The notes below the pieces were generated by a model. The model was not told the origin of the DNA and made no database searches. It saw nothing but the letters and a program-made list of their open reading frames with translations. The translations under genes were made by a program, and so were the position numbers. Shown here in pieces: positions 13,190 through 64,000 of a DNA stretch of 64,000 nucleotides. Numbering within the stretch: the stretch's first letter is position 1; each line of letters starts with the position of its first letter. Source of the stretch: Taeniopygia guttata (lineage: Eukaryota); the NCBI RefSeq assembly GCF_048771995.1, contig NC_133041.1:4599324-4663323 (forward strand). Direction: 5' to 3'.

Positions 13190-14170
13190 AAAACACAAAT
13201 TTGGGGCGATTTGGGGGATTTGGGGAGTTTTGGGGAATTTGGGGAGCATTCTGGGATTTTGGGGAGATTTTTGGGGGATTTTTGGGGGGGTTTTGGGGGG
13301 TTTTTAGGGATAATTTTGGGTAATTTTGGGGAAATTCTGGGATTTTGGGGGAATTTTGGGAGGGGTTTTGGGGAATTTTGGGGGAATTTTTGGGGTTTTT
13401 TGGGGATATTTTTGGGGGTGATTTTGGGATTTTGGGGGGATTTTTTTGGGGTTTTTTGAGGGGATTTTTTTGGGGTTTTTGGGGTGATATTTTAGGGTTT
13501 TTTTGGGGTGATTTTGGGGCATTTTAGGATGGTTTTGGGGATATTTTGGGGGGATTTTTTGATTTTTGGGGGATTTTTGTGGGTTTTTTTGGTGGGGAGT
13601 TTTGGGGTTTTTGGGGGATTCTTTGGGGCGAATTTTGGGAAATTTTTTGGGGATTTTCGGGGGTTTGGGGATAATTTCAGGGTTTTTAGGGGGATTTTTG
13701 GGCCAATTTTGTGGCATTTTCACAGCGGTTTTTGGGCTGAATTTGCAGCAATTTCTCCGCAATTTTTGGGTTAATTTTGGGCATTTTCACAGCGATTTTT
13801 GGGCCAATTTTGGGTTCATTTTGTCGACGCTCACAGAGATTTTTGGGCTGATTTTGGGTTGATTTGGGTGATTTTCAGTGATTTTTGGGTCAATTTTGGA
13901 TTGATTTTCGTGATTTTCACAGTGATTTTTGGTCTATTTTGGGCTGATTTTGGGGCATTTTCAGAGCGATTTTTGGGTTGATTTTTGTGATTTTCACAGT
14001 GATTTTTGGGTTAATTTTGCGCATTTTCACTGCGATTTTCTGGGTAATTTTGTACATTTTCACAGAGATCTTCGGGTTAATTTTGGGTTAATTTTGTGCA
14101 TTTTCACAGTGATTTTTGGATTGATTTTGTGCATTTTCACAGCGATTTTCAGGTTAATTTTGTGGATTTT
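13190..14170. repeat. G/T-rich satellites (gggaattttgggg; cacagcgatttttgggttaattttgtgcatttt, ~62-bp) in PAGR1 intron 2
   Basis: The periodicity is visible directly. Confidence 0.85.
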
Positions 14171-14181
14171 CCCCATTTCAG

Positions 14182-14336
14182 GCCCGCCCAGCCGGGGGCA
14201 GAAGCGCGAGGCGCGGCTGGACAAGGTCCTGTCGGACATGAAGCGCCACAAGCGGCTGGAGGAGCAGATCCTGCGCACCGGCCGGGACCTGTTCCCGCCC
14301 CAGGGCCAGCGCCCCTTCCCCCGCCACAAAAACTGA
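14182..14336 (+). CDS. PAGR1: PAGR1 terminal coding exon (stop TGA at 14334-14336)
   Basis: The acceptor is ccccatttcag|. It encodes (G)[50 protein letters not shown], a near-identical match to human PAGR1 [37 protein letters not shown]. Confidence 0.85.
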
Positions 14337-22379: not shown

Positions 22380-23860
22380 CCGATATTCTGCCCCAAAATT
22401 CCCCCCAATATTACCCCCAAAATCCCAAAAATCCCCCCCAAAAATTATCCCCAAAGTCCTTCAAAATCTCCCCAAAATTTCCCCAAAATCCCAAAAATCT
22501 CCCCCAGATTCTCCCCCAAATTCCCTCCAAAATCCCCCCAAAATCACCCCAAAATCCCCCCAAATTCCCTCCAAATTCCTCCCAAAATTCCCCCCAAAAT
22601 TCTCCCCAAATCTCCCAAAACCCCCCAAATTTCCACAAAAAGCCCCTAATATTTTTCCCTGAAAATCCCACATTTCCCCCCTAAAAATCCCAAAATTCCC
22701 CACAAATCCCCAAAAATCCCAAATTTTACCCCAAAATCCCAATTTCCCCAATTTTTTTTCCAGAAAACCCAAATTTTACCTAAAAATCCAAAATTTCCCC
22801 CAAAAATTTCCCAAAATTCATAAATTTTCTTAAAACTCCCCTCAAAAATCCCAAATTTCCCCAAAATTCCCCCCAAAATCCAAATTTTCCCAATCTTTAC
22901 ACAAAAACACCCAAAAATTCCAATTCTCTTATTTTTTTCCCCAAAAATCCCAAATTTCCACCTAAAACCCCCAAAATTCCCCCAAAATTTTCCCAAAAAA
23001 ACCATTTTTTCCCCCAAATTTTCCCACAAAACCCCACATTTTCCCCATAAATAACCGATTTTTCCCCAAAAATCCCAAATTTCCCCCCAAAATCCCCATT
23101 TTCCCCAAAATTTTCCCAAAATTCCTCCCAAAAATCCCAATTTTTTCCCAAAACCCCCAAATTTCCCCAAAATTCCCCTCAAACACCCCAAATTTCCCCA
23201 AATATCCCCCCAAAAATCAAAATTTTCTGCAAAATTCCCTCCAAAATCCCAATTTTTTTACCAAAACGCCCAAATTTCCTCAAAATTCCCCTCAAAAACC
23301 AAAATTTTCCCAAAATTCCTCCCAAAAATCCCAATTTTTTCCCCAAAACCCCCAAAATTCCCCAAAAATCCCCTCAAAAATCAAAATTCCCCAAAATTCC
23401 CCTCAAAATTCCCAAATTTCCCCAAAATTCCCCCCAAAATCCCATATTTTTTCCCAGGACCCCCAAATTTCCCCAAAATTCCCCTAAAAAACCCCAAATT
23501 TCCCCAAAATTCCCCAAAACCTTCAAATTTCCCCAAATATCCCCCGAAAAATCAAAATTTCTCCAAAATTCCCCCCAAAAATCCCAAATTTCCTCAAAAT
23601 TACCTCAAAAAAAATCCCAATTTTCTCCAAATTCCTTCCAAAAATACCAATTTTTTTACCAAAAAAACCAAATTATCCCCAAAATTCCCCCCCCAAAATA
23701 ATAATTTTTGTCCTGAAAAAAACAATTTTTCCCCAAAATTTCCCCCAAAATCCCAATTTTTTTACCAAAATCCCCAATTTTTCCCTAAAATTTTCCCAAA
23801 ACCCCCCAAAATTTTCCCAAAAACCCCCAAATTTTCCCAAAAAAACCCCAAATTCCCCCA
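22380..23860. repeat. C/A-rich satellite (ccccaaaattcccc..aaatcccaaattt, ~40-bp)
   Basis: The periodicity is visible directly. Confidence 0.85.
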
Positions 23861-23870
23861 AAATTTTCAC

Positions 23871-26800
23871 CTTCCTGGGATTCCACCACGTCTCTTCCTC
23901 CTCCTCTTCCTCCTCCTTCCTCCTCCTCTTCCTCGTCCCCCGCTCTTCCTCCCGCTCCCGTTTTCGCCGTTTTTCCGCCCATTTCGCCAGCGGCAAATCC
24001 TCGGAATCCTCCGAATCCGACCCCGCCGATTTTTGGGGCAATTTCGGGGATTTTCGGGCAATTTTTGGGGCTTTTTCGTCCTCTTCATCTTCATCCTCTT
24101 CTTCCTCGCTCTCAAATTTTGATTTTTTGGTCAATTTTTTTGTCATTTTTTGCCTTTTTTCCTCAATTTTTCCTGTTTTTTTCCTGTTTTTCCCACCTGG
24201 ATCTTCCTCTTCTTCCTCTTCTTCCTCCTCATCTTCATCCTCATCTTCATCTTCTTTGCTCTCAATTTTTGATTTTTTGGTCAATTTTTTTGTCATTTTT
24301 TGCCTTTTTTCCTCAACTTTTCCCGTTTTTCTCCCATTTTTCTTGCCTGAATCTTCCTTTTCCTCCTCCTCATCTTCATCCTCTTCATCCTCTTCTTCCT
24401 CGCTCTCAAATTTTGATTTTTTGGTCAATTTTTTGGTCGTTTTTTGCCTTTTTTCCTCGGTTTTTCCTGTTTTTTTCCCATTTTTCTTGCCTGGATCTTC
24501 CTCTTCTTCCTCCTCATCTTCATCCTCCTCTTCCTCACTCTCAAATTTGGATTTTTTTGCCCCTTTTTGCCTTTTTTCCTCGATTTTTCCCGTTTTTTTC
24601 CTGTTTTTCTTGCCTGGATCTTCCTCTTCTTCCTCCTCATCTTCATCCTCCTCTTCCTCGCTCTCAAATTTCGATTTTTTGGTCATTTTTTTTGTTATTT
24701 TTTGCCTTTTTTCCTGATTTTTTCCCGTTTTTTTCCTGTTTTTCCCGCCTGGATCTTCCTCATCTTCCTCCTCATCTTCATCCTCCTCTTCCTCACTCTC
24801 AAATTTTGATTTTTTTGCCGCTTTTTGGGTCACTTTTTGCCTTTTTTCCTCGATTTTTCCTGTTTTTTTCCTGTTTTTCCCACCTGGATCTTCCTCTTCT
24901 TCCTCTTCTTCCTCTTCATCTTCCTCGTCCTCGCTCTCAAATTTCGATTTTTTGTTCAATTTTTTGGTCGTTTTTTGCCTTTTTTCCTCGATTTTTCCCG
25001 TTTTTCTCCCATTTTTCTTGCCTGAATCTTCCTCTTCTTCCTCCTCATCTTCATCTTCTTCATCCTCCTCTTCCTCACTCTCAATTTTTGATTTTTTTGG
25101 CCTTTTTTGCCTTTTTTCCTCCACTTTTCCTGTTTTTTTCCTGTTTTTCCCACCTGGATCTTCCTCTTCCTCCTCCTCATCTTCATCCTCCTCTTCCTCA
25201 CTCTCAAATTTCGATTTTTTGGCCAATTTTTTGGTCATTTTTTGCGTTTTTTCCCCAATTTTTCCCGTTTTTTTCCTGTTTTTCCCACCTGGATCTTCCT
25301 CTTCTTCCTCCTCATCTTCATCCTCGTCTTCCTCACTCTCAAATTTTGATTTTTTTGCCCCTTTTTGCCTTTTTTCCTCGATTTTTCCCGATTTTTTCCT
25401 GGTTTTCCCGCCTGGATCTTCCTTTTCCTCCTCCTCATCTTCATCCTCTTCATCCTCCTCTTCCTCACTCTCAAACTTCGATTTTTTGGCCAATTTTTTG
25501 GTCATTTTTTGGGTTTTTTCCCCAATTTTCCCCGTTTTTTTCCTATTTTTTCGGTCTGGCTCTTCCTCTTCCTCCTCCTCATCTTCCTCCTCCTCACTCT
25601 CCATTTTCCTCCTTTTTCCCCCCATTTTTTCCCATTTTCCCCCTTTTTTCTCCTCATTTTTCCCAGATTTTGCTGATTTTTCCCCAATTTTTCCCCTTTT
25701 CACCCCGATTTTCTCCCTCTCTTCTTCCTCCTCCTCTTCCTCCTCCTCACTCTCCATTTTCCCCTTTTTCGCCCCGTTTCTCCCAGAATTTTCGGATTTT
25801 TCTCCAATTTTTCCTTTTTTCACCCCAATTTTTATCCTCTCCTCTTCCTCTTCCTCCTCATCTTCCTCACTCTCAATTTTCCTCCTTTTTGCCCAATTTT
25901 TCCCCATTTTTTCCTCATTTTTCCCCCCAAATTTCTTCATCTCCTCCTCTTCCTCCTCCTCCTCTTCCTCACTTTCAATTTTCCTCTTTTTTGCCCCATT
26001 TTCCCCCATTTTTTCCTCATTTTCCCCATCATTTTTCCCGGAATTTTTGGATTTTTCTTCATTTTTTCCATTTTTCACCCCATTTTTCTTCCTCTCCTCT
26101 TCCTCCTCCTCCTCCTCTTCCTCATTTTCAATTTTCCCAATTTTTTGCCCATTTTTGCCCATTTTCCCCTCATTTTTTTCCTTTTTTGCCCCATTTTTCC
26201 TTTCTTCTTCCTCGTCCTCTCCATCACTTTCAATTTTCCCCATTTTTGCCCCATTTTTTCCAATTTTTTGACCATTTTTCCACTTATTTGCCTCATTTTT
26301 CTTTTCTTCTTCCTCCTCCTCTTCCTCACTTTCAATTTTCCCCATTTTTGCCACATTTTTTCCCACTTTTTCCTCATTTTTTCCCATTTTTGCCTCATTT
26401 TTCCTTTCTTCTTCCCCCTCCTCTTCCTCACTCTCATTTCCCCCCTTTTTCTCCCCATTTTTCCCAGAACTTCTGGATTTTTCCTCATTTCTTCCTTTTT
26501 TCACCCCATTTTTCTCCCTTTCCTCTTCCTCCTCTTCCTCACTTTCCATTTCCCTCATTTTTTTCCCATTTCCCCCCAATTTTTCCTCATTTTCCCCCTT
26601 TTTTGCCCCATTTTCCCTTTCTTCTTCCTCCTCCTTTTCCTCACTTCCAATTTTCCCCATTTTTGCCCCATTTTCCCCCATTTTTTCCTCATTTTCCCCC
26701 GTCTCTTCCTCATCTTCATCCTCCTCTTCCTCGCTCTCAAATTTCGATATTTTCACCCTTTTTTTGGTCATTTTTTCCCTTTTTTCCACAATTTTTCCCA

Positions 26801-27137
26801 ATTTTTTCCCGCCTGGATCTTCCTCCTCATCCTCATCTTCCCCTCCCTCAAATTTCGCTTTTTCTCCCCATTTTTTCCCCATTTTTTCCCCGATTTCCCC
26901 CGTTTTTCCCCCATTTTTCCTCTCTGCCTCCTCCCCTCCCTCCTCTTCCCCCTCCCCCACCATTTTCCTCATTTTTGTCCCATTTTCCCCCATTTTTTCC
27001 CCATTTTCCTCCTCATTTCTCTTCCTCCTCTCCTCCTCTTCCTCAGCCCCATTTTTCCCGCCATTTTCACTTTTCCCGCCATTTCCGCCATTTTCCCGCC
27101 ATTCTCCCCATCCGCCAGGGGGCGCCCCTCTGGCCAC
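23871..27137 (-). CDS. HIRIP3: Putative HIRIP3 large acidic exon expanded into ~25 in-frame tandem repeats of ~120-135 bp (K/E/D-rich); the 5' limit is unknown
   Basis: A 1154-codon open frame lies on the HIRIP3 strand with units ..DPGGKNRKKTGKIEEKRQKMTKKLTKKSKFESEEEEDEDEEEEEE... It ends ..[50 protein letters not shown] with a strong donor AAG|GTGAAAA at 23870, in phase with exon 21207-21351. Human HIRIP3 has a comparable Ser/Glu/Lys-rich centre. Caveat: a purine-only repeat whose unit is a multiple of 3 stays open without selection. Confidence 0.4.
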
Positions 27138-44909: not shown

Positions 44910-46330
44910 AGCAAGGGGTTAAAAACGGGGAAAATTTGGGGGAAAACGGGAAAAAAATTGGGAGAAATTTGGGGGGAAAAATGGGTGAAAAATGGGCAAA
45001 ATATGGGGGAAAAATAAGCAAAAAACAGGGAAAATATTGACAAAAAATGGGGGAAATTTAAGCAAAAAATTGGGAAAATATTGACAAAAAGTGGGGGAAA
45101 TTTGGGGGGAAAATGGGGAAAAAAATTGACAAAAATGGGGGGAAAAATGTGGGAAATGGGGAAAAAATGGATGAAATTGGGCAAGAAATGGGGGGGAAAT
45201 GGGGAAAAAGGGGCAAAAAATGGGGGAAAATTAAGCAAAAAACCAGGGAAAATATTGACAAAAAATGGGGGAAATTTGGGGGGAAAATGGGGGAAAATAT
45301 TGACAAAAATGGGGGGAAAAAAATGGGGGGAAAATGTCCAAAAATGGGAAAAATACAACCGGGACTACGAGGGGCAGATCGTCGCCTACAGACAGGTCAG
45401 CAAGGGGTTAAAAACGGGGAAAATTCGGGGGAAAACGGGAAAAAAAAGGGGAAAAAATGGGGGAAAAATGGGCAAAAAATGGGAGAAAATTATAGGAAAA
45501 ATGGGGGAAAATTATGGAGAAAATGGGGGGAAAATTGAGAAAAATGGGGGGAAAAATGGGGAAAAAATGAAATTGGGCAAGAAATGGGGTGAAAATAGGA
45601 AAAAATGGGGGAAAATTAAGAAAAAACAGAGAAAATATTGGCAAAAAAGGGAAAAAAATGGGGGAAAATTAAGCAAAAAACTGGGAAAATTTTGACAAAA
45701 ATGGGGGAAAAATGGGGGAAATTTGGGGGGAAATGGGGAAAAATTGACAAAAATGGGGGAAATTTGGGGGAAAAATGGGGAAAAAATGGACAAAAATGGG
45801 GAGAAATGGGGAAAAATGGGCAAAAAAGGGGGGAAAATTGGGAAAAAAGGTGGAGAAAATGGGCAAAAATTAAGAAAAAAATGGAGAAGAAAAAGAGGGA
45901 AAATTGGGGAGAAAATGGACAAAAAATGGGAGAAAAATGTCCAAAAATGGGCAAAAACTGCAGAAATACAACTGGGACTACGAGGGGCAGATCGCCGCCT
46001 ACAGACAGGTCAGGAAAGGGTTAAAAACGGGGAAAATTTAGGGGAAAAAGGGAAAAAAAAAAGGGAGAAATTTGGGGGAAAAATGGGGGAAAATAAGCAA
46101 AAAACGGGGAAAATATTGACAAAAAATGGGGGAAAATTAAGCAAAAAACAGGGAAAATATTGACAAAAAATGGGCAAAAAATGGGGGAAATTTGGGGGGA
46201 AAATGGATTAAAAAATTGACAAAAATGGGGGGGAAATTGGGGGAAAAAATGGGGGGAAAATGTACAAAAATGGGAAAAATACAACCGCGACTACGAGGGG
46301 CAGATCGCCGCCTACCGACAGGTCAGGAAA
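44910..46330 (+). other. Three partial copies of the EIF3C exon 6 3' end plus donor plus flanking intron, in the downstream satellite
   Basis: The unit aaatacaacc[gc][cg]gactacgaggggcagatcg[ct]cgcctac[ac]gacag|gtca[gc][gc]aa[ag]gggttaaaaacgggg occurs at about 45348, 45955 and 46275. Confidence 0.8.
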
Positions 46331-55009: not shown

Positions 55010-56150
55010 ATCGGGGCAAAAAACGGGGAAATCGGGCAAAAAACACAGAAAAAAAAAAGGGGAAATCGGGCAAAAAATAGAGAAAAAAAATGGGGAAAAT
55101 TGGGGCAAAAATGGGGTTAAAAATGTGATTTATTTGGATTTTTTTTTGATTTTTTGAAGGTAAAAGAAGGGTTAAAAATGAAATTTAAAAGGGAAAAAAA
55201 TTGGGGAAAATTGAGATAAAATAAGCAAAAAATTGGGGAAAATTTAATTAAAATTTGGTGAAAAAAGGGTTAAAAATGGGATTTATTTGGATTTTTGGGG
55301 AATTTTTTAAGGGAAAATAAGGGTTAAAAATGAAATTATAAAAGGGAAAACTGGGGGGAAATTAAGATAAAATGGGGAGAAAATTGGGGAAAATTTGGTG
55401 AAAATTGGGTGAAAAAAGGAATAAAAATGACGATAATAATGGGATTTATTTGGGTTTTTGGGACTACAACCCCAACCTGGCCGCCTACATGAAGGTGAAA
55501 ACGGGGCAAAAAACAGCGAAATTGGGCAAAAAATAGAGAAAAAAACCCGGGGGAAATTGGGGCAAAAATGGAGAAAATATGGAGAAAATATGGGGAAAAA
55601 AAGGTGGAAAATTGGGGTTAAAAATGTGATTTATTTGGATTTTTTTGCGATTTTTTTAAGGGAAAATAAGGGTTAAAAATGAAATTAAAAAGGGAAAAAA
55701 TTGGGGAAAATTAAAAGAAAATGAGGAAAAAATTGGGGGAAATTTGGTGAAAATTGGGTGAAAAAAGGAATAAAAATGGGGATAAAAATGGGATTTATTT
55801 GGATTTTGGGGATTTTTTAAAGGTAAAACAAGGGTTAAAAATGGAGGAAGAATGGGGAAAATTGAGATAAAATTAGGAAAAAATTGGGGAAAATTTGGTG
55901 AAAATTGGGTGAAAAAAGGGTGAAAAATGGGGATAAAATGGGATTTATTTGGATTTTTTTAAAGGTAAAACAAGGGTTAAAAATGAAATTAAAAAGGGAA
56001 AAAATGGGGGAAAATTGAGATAAAATGAGGGAAAAATTTGGTGAAATTTGGTGAGAAAAGGAATAAAAATGGGGTTAAAAATGGGATTTATTTGGGTTTT
56101 TGGGACTACAACCCCAACCTGGCCGCCTACATGAAGGTGAAAACGGGGCA
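55010..56150 (+). other. Two partial copies of the EIF3C exon 12 3' end plus donor in a ~640-bp higher-order repeat
   Basis: The unit gactacaaccccaacctggccgcctacatgaag|gtgaaaacggggcaaaaaac occurs at about 55463 and 56103. In the copies the breakpoint lies inside the exon, before GACTAC. Confidence 0.8.
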
Positions 56151-56639
56151 AAAAACGGCAAAATCGGGCAAAAAATAGAGAAAAAAACCCGGGGGAAATT
56201 GGGGCCAAAATGGGGAAAATATGGGGGAAAAACGGTGGAAAATCGGGGTAAAAATGGGATTTATTTGGAATTTTTTTGGGATTTTTTGAAGGTAAAAGAA
56301 GGGTTAAAAGTGAAATTTAAAAGGGAAAAAAAATTGGGGAAAATTGAAATAAAATAAGCAAAAAATTGGGGAAAATTTAATTAAAATTTGGTGAAAAAAG
56401 GGTTAAAAATGGGATTTATTTGGATTTTTTAGGAATTTTTGGAGGTAAAACAAGGGTTAAAAATGAAATTAAAAAGGGAAAAAATGGGGGAAATTAAAAT
56501 TAAATGAGGAAAAAATTGGGGGAAATTTGGTGAAAATTGGGTGAAAAAAGGAATAAAAATGGGGGGAAAAATGGGATTTTTTTGGATTTTTTTTGGGATT
56601 TTGTGAAGGGCGGATCTGTGGGTCAGACAGGATCTATGG

Positions 56640-57514
56640 GGCGGATCTATAGGGTGAGTTTCTATAGGCGGAGCTGTGGCAGCGCTGCCTGGGATGTATA
56701 GAGGAGCTCCTGGAGCTGCTATGGGGCAGATCTATAGGCTCGGGGCGGATCTATGGGCTCGGGGCGGATCTATGGGGCAGATCTATGGGTCAGACAGGAT
56801 CTATGGGGCGGATCTATAGGGTGATATTCTATAGGCGGAGCTGTGGCAGCGCTGCCTGGGATGTATAGAGGAGCTCCTGGAGCTGCTATGGGGCAGATCT
56901 ATAGGCTCGGGGCGGATCTATAGGGCAGATCTATGGGTCAGACAGGATCTATGGGTCAGACAGGATCTATGGGTCAGGGCGGATGTGTGGGTCAGGATCT
57001 ATAGGGTGATATTCCATAGGCGGAGCTGTGGCAGCGCTGCCTGGGATGTATAGAGGAGCTCCTGGAGCTGCTATGGGGCAGATCTATGGGCTCGGGGCGG
57101 ATCTATGGGGCAGGATGGATCTATAGGGCAGGATCTGTGGGTCAGGATCTATGGGGCAGATCTATAGGGTGAGTTTCTATAGGCGGAGCTGTGGCAGCGC
57201 TGCCTGGGATGTATAGAGGAGCTCCTGGAGCTGCTATGGGGCAGATCTATAGGCTCGGGGCGGATCTATGGGGCAGGGTGGATCTATAGGGCAGATCTAT
57301 GGGTCAGACAGGATCTATGGGGCGGATCTATAGGGTGATATTCTATAGGCAGAGCTGTGGCAGCGCTGCCTGGGATGTATAGAGGAGCTCCTGGAGCTGC
57401 TATGGGGCAGATCTATGGGCTCGGGGCGGATCTATGGGGCAGGATGGATCTATAGGGCGGATCTGTGGGTCAGACAGGATCTATGGGGCGGATCTATAGG
57501 GTGATATTCTATAG
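56640..57514 (+). other. Five upstream partial copies of the EIF3C exon 13 acceptor plus its first ~53 nt in a ~170-bp tandem array
   Basis: The unit ttctatag|gc[ga]gagctgtggcagcgctgcctgggatgtatagaggagctcctggagctgct occurs at about 56669, 56836, 57021, 57181 and 57351. The copies diverge after GCTGCT into atggggcagatctat.., and only the final copy continues into the real exon. Confidence 0.85.
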
Positions 57515-57640
57515 GCAGAGCTGTGGCAGCGCTGCCTGGGATGTATAGAGGAGCTCCTGGAGCTGCTCTTTGCCCACCCCGAGATCTTCGTGGGCGAAAA
57601 CGTCCTCGAGGAGTCCGAGAACCTCAGCAACCCCGAGCAG
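57515..57640 (+). CDS. EIF3C: EIF3C exon 13
   Basis: It encodes [42 protein letters not shown], matching human [42 protein letters not shown]. The acceptor is ttctatag| and the donor CAG|GTATGG. Confidence 0.85.
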
Positions 57641-58460
57641 GTATGGGGCAATCTATGGGGCACCTATGGGGCACTTGTGGGGTACTTGTGGGGCACTTAT
57701 GGGGCATTTATGGGGTGTGGGGGCACCTATGGGGTCATTTTTGGGGTCACTTATGGGGTAATCTATGGGGTCATTTATGGGGCTCCTATGGGGTCATTTA
57801 TGGGGTGTGGGGGCACTTATGGGGTTATTTATGGGGCACTTATGGGGTAATCTATGGGGCACTTATGGGGCACCTGTGGGGTCACTTATGGGGCACCTGT
57901 GGGGTCACTTATGGGGAACTTATGGGGCACTTTGGGGCACTTATGGGGCACTTATTGGGTTATCTATGGGGTCACTTATGGGGCACCTATGGGGCACTTA
58001 TGGGGCACCTATGGGGCACTTATGGGGCACCTATGGGGTCATTTATGAGGCACTTACGGGGCACTTATGGGGCACTTATGGGGTACCTATGGGGCATTTA
58101 TGGGGCACTTGTGGGGTCATTTATAGGGTCACTTTTGGGGTCACTTATGGGACACTTATGGGGATTTTGGGGTCACTTTTGGGATTTTGGGGTCATTTTG
58201 GGGTCAGTTTTGGGGTAATTTTGGGTTTATTTATGGGATTTTATGGTCGGTTTTGGTTTTTGGGGTAAATTTTGGGGATTTTGGGTCCGTTTCAGCCGTT
58301 CCGGGTGCGCGGCTGCGTCCTGACCCTGGTGGAGCTGAGGGGTCATTTTGGGGTCATTTATGGGTTTTGGGGTCACTTTTGGGGTTTTTTGGGTGGGTTT
58401 TGGGTTTTTGAGGACAGTCACGGATTTTTGGGGTAAATTTTGGGGATTTTGGGTCCGTTT
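57641..58460. repeat. ~22-bp satellite (cacttatggggcacctatgggg)
   Basis: ORFs 57523-58218 and others (MGHLWGTYG..) are artefacts. Confidence 0.9.
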
Positions 58461-58463
58461 CAG

Positions 58464-58557
58464 CCGTTCCGGGTGCGCGGCTGCGTCCTGACCCTGGTGG
58501 AGCGGATGGACGAGGAGTTCACCAAGATCATGCAGAACACCGACCCCCACTCCCAGG
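58464..58557 (+). CDS. EIF3C: EIF3C exon 14
   Basis: It encodes [31 protein letters not shown](E), matching human [32 protein letters not shown]. One partial upstream copy of the acceptor plus first ~45 nt lies at about 58284-58330. Confidence 0.9.
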
Positions 58558-59589
58558 GTGGGTCCGGCTGTGGGGCAGAGCTCGGCCCCATAGATCCAAA
58601 AACCCCAAAAAAACCCAAAAACCCCAAAAAATCTGAAAAAATGTGAATTTTTGGTCATTTTTTGGCTTAATTTCCTTTTTTTTTGGCCAATTTTGGTCAT
58701 TTTCACTCCAAATTTGGAGGTTCTGTGGGGCAGGTGGGATGTGGGGCAGAGCTCGGCCCCATAGATCCCAAAAACCCCAAAACCACAAAAAAAAACCCAA
58801 AAAAAAATCTCAAAAAATGTGAATTTTTGGTCTTTTTTTGGGAAATTTTCACTTTTTTTGGCCAATTTTGGTCATTTTCACCCCAAATTTGGGGTTTTTG
58901 TGGGGCAGGGGGGAAGTGGGGGAGGGCTCGGCCCCATAGATCCCAAAAAACCCCAAAAAACCCCAAAAAACAAAAAAAAAAACCCAAAAAAACCTCAAGA
59001 AATGTGAATTTTTGGTCATTTTTTGGCTTAATTTCCTTTTTTCTTGGCCAATTTTGGTCATTTTCACCCCAAATTTGGGGTTTTTGTGGGGCAGGTGGGA
59101 TGTGGGGAAGGGCTCGGCCCCATAGATCCCAAAAACCCCAAAAAACCCCAAAAAACAAAAAAAAAAATCTCAAAAAATGTGAAATTTTGGTCATTTGTTG
59201 GCCAATTTTAGCTTTTCATGGCCAATTTTGGTCATTTTTACCCCAAATTTGGGGTTTTTGTGGGGCAGGTGGGATGTGGGGCAGGGCTCGGCCCCATAGA
59301 TCCCAAAAACCAAAAAAAACCCCAAAAAACCCCAAAAAAACTCCCCAAAAAAACCCTCAAAAATGTGAATTTTTGCTGATTTTTTTGGCCAACTTTGGCT
59401 TTTTTTTTGGCCAATTTTGCTCCTTTTCACCCCAAATTTGGGGCTTCTGTGGGACAGGTGAGCTCCGGGTGGGCGGAGACTCACCTGGGTGAGGTTTTGG
59501 GGTTTTTGGAGGGGATTTTTGGGGTATTTTGGGGTTTTTTTGGGTTTTTTGGTGGTTTTTTGGGTTTTTAAAGTCTCACCTGCCCACCA

Positions 59590-61929
59590 GGTGTGCCCAG
59601 GTGTGTCCAGGTGTGACCTCAGTGTACCTGGAGCACCTGAAGGATCCAAACCCTGAACGGGGGCTCACCTGGAGCTCACCTGGCTGTGATTTCGATGGGA
59701 TTTTTGGGGTTTTTTTGGACTTTTTTGGGTTTTTTGGGGTTTCTTGGGGTTTTTTTGGCATTTTAATCCCTCACCTGCCCACAAGGTGTGCCCAAGTGTG
59801 CCCAGGTGTGCCCAGGTGAATCCTCAGAACTCCTGGAGCACCTGAAGGATCCAAATCCTGAGCTGGAGCTCACCTGGCTGGGATTTTGATGTGGTTTTTT
59901 GGGGGTTTTTTGGGTTTTTTGGTGTTTTTTGGGTTTTTAAAGTCTCACCTGCCCACCAGGTGTGCCCAGGTGTGACCTCAGTGTACCTGGAGCACCTGAA
60001 GGATCCAAACCCTGAACTGAGACTCACCTGGAGCTCACCTGGGGCTCACCTGGATGGATTTTGGAGGATTTTTGGGGTATTTTTGGGCTTTTTTGACATT
60101 TTAATCCCTCACCTGCCCACAAGGTGTGCCCACAAGGTGTGCCCAGGTGTGCCCAGGTGAATCCTCAGAACTCCTGGAGCACCTGAAGGAGCTGGAGCCT
60201 CACCTGGGGCTCACCTGGAGCTCACCTGGCTGGGGATTTTGGGGATTTTTTGGAGTATTTTGTGGGTTTTTTGGGTTTTTAGGTCTCACCTGCCCAACAG
60301 GTGTGCTCAGGTGAGTCCTCAGAACACCTGGAGCCTCACCTGGGGCTCACCTGGCTGGGTTTTTTGGGGATTTTTTGGGCTTTTTTTGGTTTTTTTGGTG
60401 TTTTTTTGGCATTTTAATCCCTCACCTGCCCACCAGGTGTGCCCAGCTGTGCCCAGGTGAGTCCTCAGAACACCTGGAGCACCTGAAGGAGGTGGAGCCT
60501 CACCTGGAGCTCACCTGGCTGGGATTTCGATGTGGTTTTTGGCTTTTTTTTTGTCCTTTTTTTGGTTTTTTTTTTGGTTTTTTTTCTTTTTTCGCTATTT
60601 GCCCCCTCACCTGCCCGCCAGGTAACCCAGGTGTGTCCTTTCAGAGTACGTGGAGCACCTGAAGGATCCAAACCCTGAACTGGGGCTCACCTGGCTGGGA
60701 TTTCAATGGGATTTTTGGGGTTTTTTTGGGTTTTTTGGTATTTTCAGCCTCACCTGCCCGCCAGGTGACCCCGCCAGGTAACCCAGGTGTGTCTTTGCAG
60801 AGTACGTGGAGCACCTGAAGGAGCCGGAGCCTCACCTGGAGCTCACCTGGCTGTAATTTTGATGTGGTTTTTGGCGCTTTTTTGTCCTTTTTTTGGATTT
60901 TTTTTTTGCATTTTCCGCTATTTCCCCCTCACCTGCCCGCCAGGTAACCCAGGTGTGCCTTCACAGAGTACGTGGAGCACCTGAAGGAGCTGGAGCCTCA
61001 CCTGGGGCTCATCTGAGGCTCATCTGGAGCTCACCTGGCTGGGATTTCAATGTGATTTTTTGGGGTATTTTTGGGGATTTTTGGTGTTTTTTGGGTTTTG
61101 AAGGTCTCACCCCTCAGCCAGGTGTGTCCAGGTGAGTCCTCAGAACAATTGGAGAACCTGAAGGAGCCGGAGCCTCACCTGGCTGGGATTTTGGGGATTT
61201 CTTGGTGTATTTTTGGCCTTTTTTTGTCCTTTTTTTGGGTTTTTTTGGGGTTTTTTTTGCCACTTCCCCCCTCACCTGCCTGCCAGGTGTGCTCAGGTGT
61301 GCCCAGGTGTGACCAGGTGTGACTTCAGTGTACCTGGAGCACCTGAAGGATCCAAACCCTGAACTGAGACTCACCTGGAGCTCACCTGGAGCTCACCTGG
61401 AGCTCACCTGGGGCTCACCTGGGGCTCACCTGGCTACGATTTTGGGGTTTTTTGGGCTTTTTTAATCATTTTTTTGGATTTTTTTCCTTTTTTCACTACT
61501 TCCACCCTCACCTGCCCGCCAGGTAACCCACCAGGTAACCCAGGTGTGTCTTTCAGAGTACGTGGAGCACCTGAAGGATCCAAACCCTGAACTGGGGCTC
61601 ACCTGGAGCTCACCTGGCTGCGATTTTGGGGATTTCTTGGTGTATTTTTGGCTTTTTTTTGTCCTTTTTTTGGGTTTTTTTTCCTTTTTTCGCTATTTCC
61701 TCCCTCACCTGCCCGCCAGGTGAGCTCAGCTGTGCCCAGGTGTGTCCAGGTGAGTCCTGAGAACACCTGGAGCACCTGAAGGATCCAAACCCTGAACTGG
61801 AGCTCACCTCGCTATGATTTCTATGTGATTTTTCGGGGTTTTTTAGGTTTTTTGGGCGTTTTTTTGGCATTTTCACCTTTACCTGCCCGCCAGGTGACCC
61901 CGCCAGGTAACCCAGGTGTCTCTTCCCAG
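59590..61929 (+). other. About 12 upstream partial copies of the EIF3C exon 15 acceptor plus first ~22 nt, in a ~150-190-bp tandem array
   Basis: The motif (t)ttcag|agtacgtggagcacctgaag and the variants cag|aacacctggagcacctgaag and cag|tgtacctggagcacctgaag occur at about 59609, 59828, 59972, 60166, 60466, 60644, 60800, 60965, 61140, 61325, 61548 and 61757. Each is followed by gatccaaaccctgaactgg..ctcacctgg rather than the exon body. Confidence 0.85.
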
Positions 61930-62096
61930 AGTACGTGGAGCACCTGAAGGACGAGGCGCGGGTGTGCGGCATCATCGGGCGGCTGCAGCGCTACCTGCAG
62001 GCCAAGGGCAGCCCCGAGGAGCTGTGCCGGGTGTACCTGCTGCGCGTCCTCCACACCTACTACAAGTTCGACTACGCCGCCGCCCGCCGCCGCCAG
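61930..62096 (+). CDS. EIF3C: EIF3C exon 15
   Basis: It encodes (E)[55 protein letters not shown], matching human [55 protein letters not shown]. Confidence 0.9.
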
Positions 62097-62186
62097 GTGC
62101 GGCCCCGCCCGCAGGTGAGCCCCGGCCCGCAGGTGAGCCCCGGCCCGCAGGTGAGCCCCGGCCCGCAGGTGAGCCCTGACCCGCAG
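62097..62186 (+). repeat. An intron (or exitron) built from 5 tandem 18-bp units, each starting GT and ending AG, that stays in frame with the flanking exons
   Basis: The units are gtgcggccccgcccgcag once, gtgagccccggcccgcag three times and gtgagccctgacccgcag once. The ORF track reads straight through them as [30 protein letters not shown]. Confidence 0.85.
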
Positions 62187-62275
62187 GAGAAGGAGAAGGA
62201 GGATGAGGAGAAGGAGAAGCAGGAGGAGGAGGAGGAGGAGGAGGATTCGGAGGCGTTGATGGAGAGGTTGTGCAG
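62187..62275 (+). CDS. EIF3C: EIF3C exon 16 (the gene continues beyond the window end)
   Basis: It encodes [29 protein letters not shown](R/K), matching human ..[22 protein letters not shown]. The donor is AG|GTGAGT at 62276. Confidence 0.85.
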
Positions 62276-64000
62276 GTGAGTGGGGCACACCTGGGCACAC
62301 CTGGAGGGCATCAAGACACACCTGGATACACCTGGGTGGGGTCAGGGCACATCTGGGTGGGGTCAGGGCACACCTGGGTACACCTGGGTACACCTGGAGG
62401 TGTTAAAGACACACCTGGATTGGCTTAGAGAACACCTGGATACACCTGGAGGGGGTAAAGACACACCTGGGTGGGGTAAAGGCACTCCTGGACACACCTG
62501 GAGAGGGTCAGGGCACACCTGAGTACTCCTGGGTTGGGTCAGGGCACACCTGGGTGGGGTCAGGGCACACCTGGGTGGGGTCAGGGCACACCTGGGTGGG
62601 GTCAGGGCACACCTGGATACACCTGGAGGGCATAAAGACACACCTGGATTGGCTTAGGGCACACTTGGAGGGAGTCAGGGCACACCTGGAGGGGGTAAAG
62701 ACACACCTGGGTACACCTGGGTGGGGTGGGGGCACACCTGGGTGGGGTTGGGGCACACCTGGATATACCTGGATACACCTGGGTGGGGTTTGGGCACACC
62801 TGGGTGGGGTAAAGACACACCTGGGCACACATGGATACACCTGGGAGGGCTCAGGGCACACCTGGGTGGAGTCAGGGCACACCTGGGTTGGGTTAGGGAA
62901 CACCTGGATACACCTGGAGGGGGTAAAGACACACCTGGACACACCTGGATACACCTGGAGGGCATAAAGACACACCTGGATACACCTGGGTGGGGTTGGG
63001 GCACACCTGGAGGGGGGAAAGACACACCTGGATACACCTGGAGGGGGTCCAGGCACACCTGGGCACACCTGGATACACCTGGAGGGGGTAAAGACACACC
63101 TGGGTACACCTGGAGGGGGTCAGGGCACACTTGGATACACCTGGGTGGGGTCAGGGCACACCTGGGTACACCTGGGTGGAGTAAACGCACACCTGGGCAC
63201 ACCTGGGTACACCTGGGTAGAGCAAACGCACACCTGGACACACCTGGATACACCTGGAGGGGGTCCAGGCACACCTGGGCACACCTGGGTACACCTGGAT
63301 ACACCTGGGTGGGGTCAGGGCACACCTGGAGGAGGTGGGGATGCACCTGGGTACACCTGGATACACCTGGATGGGGTTGAGGCACACCTGGGTACACCTG
63401 GAGGGGGTCAGGGCACACCTGGATACACCTGGAGGGGGTCAGGGAACACCTGGAGGGGGTAAAGATACACCTGGGCACACCTGGGTACACCTGGAGGGGG
63501 TCAGGGCATACCTGGATACACCTGGAGGGGGTCGGGGCACACCTGGACACACCTGGATACACCTGGGTGGGGTCAGAGCACACCTGGGCACACCTGGAGG
63601 GGGTCGGGGCACACCTGGACACACCTGGATACACCTGGGTGGGGTCAGAGCACACCTGGGCACACCTGGAGGGGGTCAGGGCACACCTGGGCACACCTGC
63701 AGGGAGACGAGACACACCTGGAGGGGGTCAGGGCACACCTGGACACACCTGGATACACCTGGAGGGGGTCCGGGCACACCTGGGCACACCTGGATACACC
63801 TGGGTGGGGTCAGGGCACACCTGGAGGAGGTGGGGATGCACCTGGGTACACCTGGGTGGGGTTGGGGCACACCTGGGTACACCTGGAGGGCATAAAGACA
63901 CACCTGGATTGGCTTAGGGCACACTTGGAGGGAGTCAGGGCACACCTGGGCACACCTGGAGGAGGTGGGGATGCACCTGGGCACACCTGGATGGGGTCAG
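62276..64000. repeat. ~30-bp satellite (cacacctgggtggggtcagggcacacctgga..) in EIF3C intron 16; it runs to the window end
   Basis: It is rich in CACCTG/CAGGTG E-box motifs, and its many ORFs are artefacts. Confidence 0.9.

Follow-up and report, generated by a model that had tools for sequence, protein, structure and literature searches.

In the 64,000-nt stretch of DNA analysed here (the window), EIF3C carries a tandem repeat of 90 nt at 62097-62186. The repeat has an open reading frame, stands at about the position of an ancestral intron and is homologous to a satellite in the neighbouring intron; the corresponding site is coding in Zosterops. We tentatively read this array as an intron-derived in-frame minisatellite, which may be mainly translated in a disordered linker of variable length. 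In the passerine lineage, an ancient phase-0 intron of this linker ("intron A") would have shrunk to a short relic, in frame and translated, of which Zosterops would keep GTGAGC+CAC only. In the window species, an 18-nt unit that resembles a donor end (GTGAGC) joined directly to an acceptor end (CCCGCAG) would have been amplified to five copies. Retained mainly in the mRNA, the array would add ~30 Pro/Ser/Gln-rich residues to an eIF3c linker that varies freely in length. Both the retention in mRNA and the history of collapse followed by amplification are what we infer from the DNA described below.

The gene was identified as EIF3C on the + strand by a Pfam match to eIF-3c_N (E = 3e-79). Its exons were mapped by tblastn from 39564 to 62075 on the + strand. 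The tblastn query was a human EIF3C sequence, used as a probe only, and the mammalian junction given below rests on contig L036. The features surrounding the array are as follows; in sequences, a slash marks a splice junction or a splice-like site.

58558-61929, + strand: upstream intron, with tandem units of ~136-332 bp
61930-62096, + strand: EIF3C exon part A, acceptor ctcttcccag/AG, tblastn HSP 61929-62075, GC3 100%
62097-62114, + strand: unit 1, GTGCGGCCCCGCCCGCAG, encoding VRPRPQ, the most divergent unit
62115-62168, + strand: units 2-4 (starts 62115, 62133 and 62151), three identical copies of GTGAGCCCCGGCCCGCAG, encoding VSPGPQ each
62169-62186, + strand: unit 5, GTGAGCCCTGACCCGCAG, encoding VSPDPQ
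62187-62275, + strand: EIF3C exon part B, a purine-rich acidic stretch and then the conserved DSxxLMERLC region
62276-64000, + strand: intron B (phase 2), filled with CACACCTGG-type satellite and running off the window end

The architecture of the array was determined by direct reading of the sequence. It consists of five head-to-tail 18-bp units, each running from GT to AG, which confirmed what an earlier note on this DNA had said of the unit ends and of a length divisible by three. The note had also described the units as one sequence repeated five times. The number of units was right, but only three are identical, and the two variant units carry 3 and 2 mismatches to the consensus. In Tandem Repeats Finder, the repeat was placed at 62094-62187, with a period of 18, 5.2 copies, 93% matches and a score of 153. 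When the whole window was searched for the 18-mer with up to three mismatches, five occurrences were found, all in the array, compared to 0.04 expected from shuffles.

The EIF3C reading frame is open from 61932 to 62276, across the whole array (90 = 5 x 18 nt, stop-free). Translation of the array gives 30 aa, namely VRPRPQ, (VSPGPQ)x3 and VSPDPQ, in agreement with the proposal that full retention adds 30 aa in frame. Since the unit length is a multiple of three and no stop codon is present, the array is viable without splicing. The encoded hexapeptide is rich in Pro, Ser, Gln and Gly. The array is 44% C and 82% GC, and its GC3 is 96.7% versus 100% in exon part A and 93.1% in part B. The order GC3 > GC1 > GC2 in the array is the same as in the flanks.

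The intron history of the linker was then read from orthologous contigs. Intron A is kept in mammal-like, reptile-like, fish-like and some bird-like contigs. In the mammal-like L036 it begins at ...KFDYKAHQRQLTPPEGSSK/gtgagt, is ~205 nt long and ends in ...cccag/, and in the fish-like L009 it reads ...GLQGESK/gtgaga...ttcag/. The acceptor in L034 is gcccgcag/TCAGAG (SEQDQ), and the exon end in the bird-like L003 and L004 is ...KFDYAALRKEQGLE/gtgaga. Every intron A seen starts AG/GTGAG. Because it is present in L036, L034, L009 and L003/L004, intron A is ancient in the linker. Its position is ...LTPPEGSSK/SEQDQ..., nine codons past HQRQ/LTPP. The human junction had previously been given as ..HQRQ/LTPPEGSS.., which is misplaced; the conserved junction in L036, L009 and L034 is SSK/SEQDQ. 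Measured from KFDY, intron A lies after 10-15 codons in L036, L034, L009 and L003/L004, versus 7 or 13 codons for the site in the window.

In one organism, the linker is free of introns. Its contigs L002, L005 and L006, which have the same sequence, contain neither intron A nor intron B, and their linker lies within a single exon. The L002/L005 linker shares D-P-Q in frame with unit 5. The motifs that flank the linker, KFDY and DSxxLMERLC, are conserved (DSxxLMERLCK in L002, L009, L034 and L036), and the sequence between them varies among orthologues. Measured from KFDY to DS, the linker ranges from 21 residues in L002 and 25 in L009 to 56 in the window and 70 in Zosterops; without the array, that of the window would be 26. 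The human EIF3C linker, which we take to be 26 residues, is the same length as that of the window without the array. A metagenome scan returned mostly distant eukaryotes, and its useful contigs were L005/L006 and the fish-like L009. The protein collections searched contained no passerine EIF3C transcript or transcript-derived protein except a partial Zosterops gene model, and their Columba livia fragment (P0109) stops just after KFDY. In the bird-like ENA contig L035, the ..ILCHIYHHALHSRW.. exon region recurs at 270-385 in a diverged form reading DLCPISHHALHSRWFQ.., amid ctgtggg-type repeats. L035/P0099 was considered as a further new intron position and set aside, since it probably represents part of an exon that was copied into a repeat-rich intron and has diverged.

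The closest relative available was Zosterops borbonicus (L001), which shares the flanking repeat types and intron B with the window. In Zosterops, the exon reads as a single open frame between EYVEHLK and MERLCR, and exon part A of the window was 91% identical to this exon at the nucleotide level. At the array site, Zosterops reads GCA CAG GTG AGC CAC GAG AAG GAG, with 9 nt (GTGAGC+CAC) between the Q codon and GAGAAGGAG. Since 9 nt are too short for an intron, CAG/GTGAGC must be translated in Zosterops (Q-V-S-H). In the multiple alignment, this CAG/GTGAGC lined up with the L003/L004 donor GAG/GTGAGA and with unit 2 of the window, and unit 1 was aligned opposite the Zosterops coding sequence ..GGASAQ. 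In the comparison of orthologues for unit number that had been suggested earlier, Zosterops showed a single CAG GTG AGC, versus five copies in the window. A second set of in-frame repeats containing CAGGTG (QVKVEQVEQVKVEQVK), independent of the first, is present in the Zosterops linker, and this exon therefore tolerates decoy donors. Zosterops was the only relative in which this exon is assembled, and its assembly has a gap immediately downstream. Because its exon is 9% divergent from the window exon, it is not a close proxy. Upstream, the Zosterops protein model is not reliable, as it continues through an intron (QVSSPVPQVTQVCLSP), and only the DNA was used.

We examined the origin of the unit in the two neighbouring introns. 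The register CAGGTGAGCCCTGACCC (62166-62182, in unit 5) is the reverse complement of the intron B satellite (GGGTCAGGGCACACCTG, + strand) at 16 of 17 bases, and the satellite 21-mer GGGTCAGGGCACACCTGGGTG is an inverted homologue of the array unit. The whole search with CAGGTGAGCCCTGACCC gave 37 matches, compared to 0.11 expected, of which 33 were on the minus strand at 62339-63948. The 12-base sequence that opens this register in units 2-4, CAGGTGAGCCCC, occurs on the + strand in these three units only, and on the minus strand in eight copies in the upstream intron. In the last 8 kb of the window (56001-64000) lie 39 of the 47 CAGGTG copies and 157 of the 166 CACCTG copies. By these matches, the array belongs to a local family of repeats with a CAGGTG core and is inverted with respect to the two neighbouring introns. 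The units resemble miniature GT...AG introns because AG/GT is the core of this family. Another way to read the unit is as the donor end common to every intron A (GTGAG), followed directly by an acceptor end, CCCGCAG, that is identical to the L034 acceptor.

Intron B itself, which follows MERLCR, is common to the window and Zosterops (L001, from 4763), and in the window it consists entirely of CACACCTGG-type satellite. It is absent in L002/L005, L009, L034 and L036, where the coding sequence is continuous through (K/R)D, and it looks like a lineage-specific intron gain. The donor of exon part B at 62276, TGCAG/GTGAGT, matches the consensus at 9/9 positions. The satellite unit of intron B, (G)ATACACCTGG / CACACCTGG, at 62283-64000 on the + strand, corresponds to a 5' splice site in antisense (CCAGGTGTATC), and for this reason the satellite resembles the 5' end of U1 snRNA. 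More than 150 satellite copies in the pre-mRNA are complementary to CAGGUG donors, including the donor of intron B and the five array units.

The tandem units of the EIF3C introns include recognisable copies of adjacent exon ends, that is, pseudo-exon pieces with their own acceptor or donor. In the upstream intron, the units contain copies of the acceptor with the first ~22 nt of the exon, as well as the minus-strand CAGGTGAGCCCC copies. Examples are three extra copies of one 15-residue exon segment and two copies of an acceptor plus AGTACGTGGAGCACCTGAAGGA.

45339-45395, window: exon-end copy in an EIF3C intron
45886-46008, window: exon-end copy in an EIF3C intron
46154-46321, window: exon-end copy in an EIF3C intron
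56074-56136, window: exon-end copy in an EIF3C intron
57150-57308, window: exon-end copy in an EIF3C intron
58293-58334, window: exon-end copy in an EIF3C intron
61557-61590, window: exon-end copy in an EIF3C intron
~61770-61800, window: exon-end copy in an EIF3C intron

These copies are potential decoy splice sites. Exon-end copies within introns were also observed in the bird-like contigs L003 (1290-1363) and L004 (757-840). As EIF3C introns repeat their own exon borders, the satellite could have been seeded from the array junction, or the reverse.

We next compared the splice signals of the array with those of the gene. Scored against the donor consensus MAG/GTRAGT, units 2-5 match at 8/9 positions (CAG/GTGAGC in units 2-4) and unit 1 at 7/9 (CAG/GTGCGG). 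The real EIF3C donors match at 5-9/9, most of them at 5-7/9. The unit acceptors have CAG/G, and positions -23 to -4 are 50-55% pyrimidine with 5-10% T, compared to 30-55% T at the same positions in eight real EIF3C acceptors. The only yTnAy motif in the array is CTGAC in unit 5, and the other UnA motifs are of the GUGAG type. This CTGAC was rejected as a branch point for the 62186 acceptor, since its distance of 8 nt from the last AG is too short, and no consensus branch site was found within the array at a usable distance (about 18-40 nt upstream). The purine-rich GAR stretch downstream of the array resembles exonic splicing enhancers, which are known to activate weak upstream acceptors, and would favour splicing. 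RNA folding of the array with its flanks scored worse than shuffled sequence (z = +2.0). In a fold of 62080-62400, units 3-5 paired with inverted satellite copies at ~62330-62400, and the whole fold was unexceptional (z = 0.87). Predicted folding therefore gave no evidence of a selected RNA structure at the array, and Rfam had no family match anywhere in the window.

The five donors and five acceptors allow 15 pairings, of which nine span 18 or 36 nt, three 54 nt, two 72 nt and one 90 nt. The shortest validated vertebrate introns are 43 nt, and human introns show a threshold at 65 nt and a peak at 85 nt (PMC4463651). The claim that any donor/acceptor pairing would serve could thus not be upheld, as 9/15 pairings fall below the shortest validated introns. 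The whole array (90 nt) and the 72-nt pairings lie above the spliceosomal length minimum. By length, the 90- and 72-nt pairings are feasible, those of 54 nt are borderline, and those of 18 and 36 nt are not feasible.

The array had been described as an intron between exons 15 and 16. A conserved intron is indeed expected here, but the open ORF, the coding status in Zosterops and the T-poor acceptors speak against taking this description as established. Taken together, the open 3n frame, the flank-like GC3, the Zosterops ORF, the variable linker, the T-poor acceptors and the satellite homology make translation of the array the tentatively preferred reading. The open frame by itself is no more than a moderate argument, since about 2/9 of introns (1/3 x 2/3, ~0.22) would be 3n and stop-free by chance.

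Constitutive removal is a possible, somewhat doubtful alternative. In this case, 62097-62186 would be a 90-nt intron, a shrunken intron A, with inner sites kept silent by being too close together. It is likewise possible, with similar doubt, that such a 90-nt intron was built from the local tandem-repeat family in the same way as other EIF3C introns. The array lies about where the intron is expected and in the same phase 0, matching intron A in phase and approximate position. Its AG/GTGAG is shared with every intron-A donor seen, its donors (8/9) beat most real EIF3C donors (5-7/9), and the unit end CCCGCAG is the L034 acceptor. The satellite family is otherwise found here in introns only. Excision would leave a linker of 26 residues, near the 25 of the fish-like L009, and exons of ordinary size, 167 and 89 nt. 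The length is also suitable, as short vertebrate introns have a modal size close to 90 nt (PMC4463651). Against these points, an excised intron needs no 3n stop-free frame, and Zosterops has no intron here. In addition, the polypyrimidine tract is poor in T, there is no well-placed branch site, and five donors and five acceptors compete within 90 nt.

The ultra-short vertebrate introns described by Shimada et al. (2015, PMC4463651) are similar to the array in that it is 90 nt long, near the 85-nt human peak, and GC-rich with canonical ends. Several of the validated ultra-short introns also have no good branch site or polypyrimidine tract (PMC4463651). However, most of them (12/22 screened) are G-rich with G-triplet enhancers (PMC4463651), whereas the array is C-rich, a tandem repeat and frame-keeping.

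Alternative splicing of the array is less likely. Here the array would be an exitron, or a mini-intron with several registers, from which some transcripts lose 90, 72 or 54 nt to give isoforms differing by 30, 24 or 18 residues. Such an intron could be a nascent one, re-born by tandem duplication of an AG/GT-bearing segment. In its sequence the array resembles exitrons, being a GC-rich, 3n, stop-free segment within an ORF that has canonical ends and falls in a disordered region (PMC4484396). Tandem duplication of AGGT-bearing coding sequence has created a spliceable intron elsewhere (PMC3265369, PMC4974935). On the other side, the acceptor signals are weak and 9/15 pairings are sterically impossible. 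A related history, which we also regard as improbable, is that intron A collapsed to an unspliceable translated 18-nt relic and that amplification to 90 nt restored spliceability, with isoforms produced through the 90-, 72- and 54-nt registers. Splicing of a re-born intron might be modulated by base-pairing with the ~30 inverted unit copies in intron B.

The exitrons of Marquez et al. (2015, PMC4484396) have, like the array, a continuous ORF, a length that is a multiple of 3, no stop, GT...AG ends and a disordered low-complexity segment. Exitrons are defined by observed alternative splicing. The array differs from them in being tandem, with five nested donor/acceptor pairs, and in being apparently derived from an intron or satellite. 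The same authors proposed a "splicing memory", in which exitron splicing can arise from vestigial signals left at a former exon border by intron loss (PMC4484396). Among published ideas, this one comes nearest to the history suggested for the array, although no orthologue was found in which an exitron corresponded to an intron (PMC4484396).

The Rogers model (Hellsten et al. 2011, PMC3265369; potato RdRp, PMC4974935) offers a second comparison, in that AG/GT is coding in Zosterops and repeated in the window. Because CAG/GTGAGC is coding in Zosterops and tandem here, the first GT and a later AG could bracket a removable segment whose excision would give a near-ancestral mRNA. In the known cases of the Rogers model, the duplicated exon segments are longer and supply a polypyrimidine tract, whereas the array has 18-nt units. 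Since each unit is 18 nt, at least three units would have to be removed together.

A mis-assembly of the presence or copy number of the array is very improbable: GC-rich tandem repeats are error-prone and the Zosterops assembly has its gap close by, but there are no N bases in the window, and the pattern does not fit an artefact because the first and last units are diverged and both flanks are joined by clean in-frame junctions.

The tentatively preferred reading, a mainly translated minisatellite at the former site of intron A, has its own known counterpart in coding minisatellites of disordered linkers. Like these, the array has a 3n unit that encodes a hexapeptide, the linker ranges from 21 to 70 residues among orthologues, and Zosterops has a second repeat. 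The array differs from usual coding minisatellites in its splice consensus at both ends, its place at an ancestral intron site and its being an inverted copy of an intronic satellite. If translated, it would be an ordinary example of an in-frame repeat that has expanded within a disordered linker, here in an essential translation factor. If the re-birth reading were true, a minisatellite at a "remembered" intron site would provide a natural case of intron re-birth, or of the origin of an exitron.

This stretch of EIF3C differs among a few species: some keep a conserved intron, one has lost it completely, Zosterops retains a relic of 9 nt, and the window species has a 90-nt repeat bearing splice sites, while a new lineage-specific intron lies 89 nt downstream. 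Because these states coexist across species, the locus is a compact natural series for intron loss, exonisation and possible re-creation. It also shows the intron-filling tandem repeats of a GC-rich bird gene interacting with splice signals.

Outside the array, tandem repeats in which long spurious ORFs occur make up almost the entire window. On the minus strand, 23673-27137 contains a 1154-residue open frame with acidic/basic repeats of ~40 residues (..KKSKFESEEEEDEDEEEEEEDPGGKNRKKTGKIEEKRQK..). This frame had no Pfam match; it may represent a genuine gene rich in repeats, or only a frame left open by a GA-rich tandem repeat. On the + strand, an ORF fragment at 13929-14336 matched Pfam PAXIP1_C (E = 7e-9), which suggests a PAGR1-like exon upstream of EIF3C.
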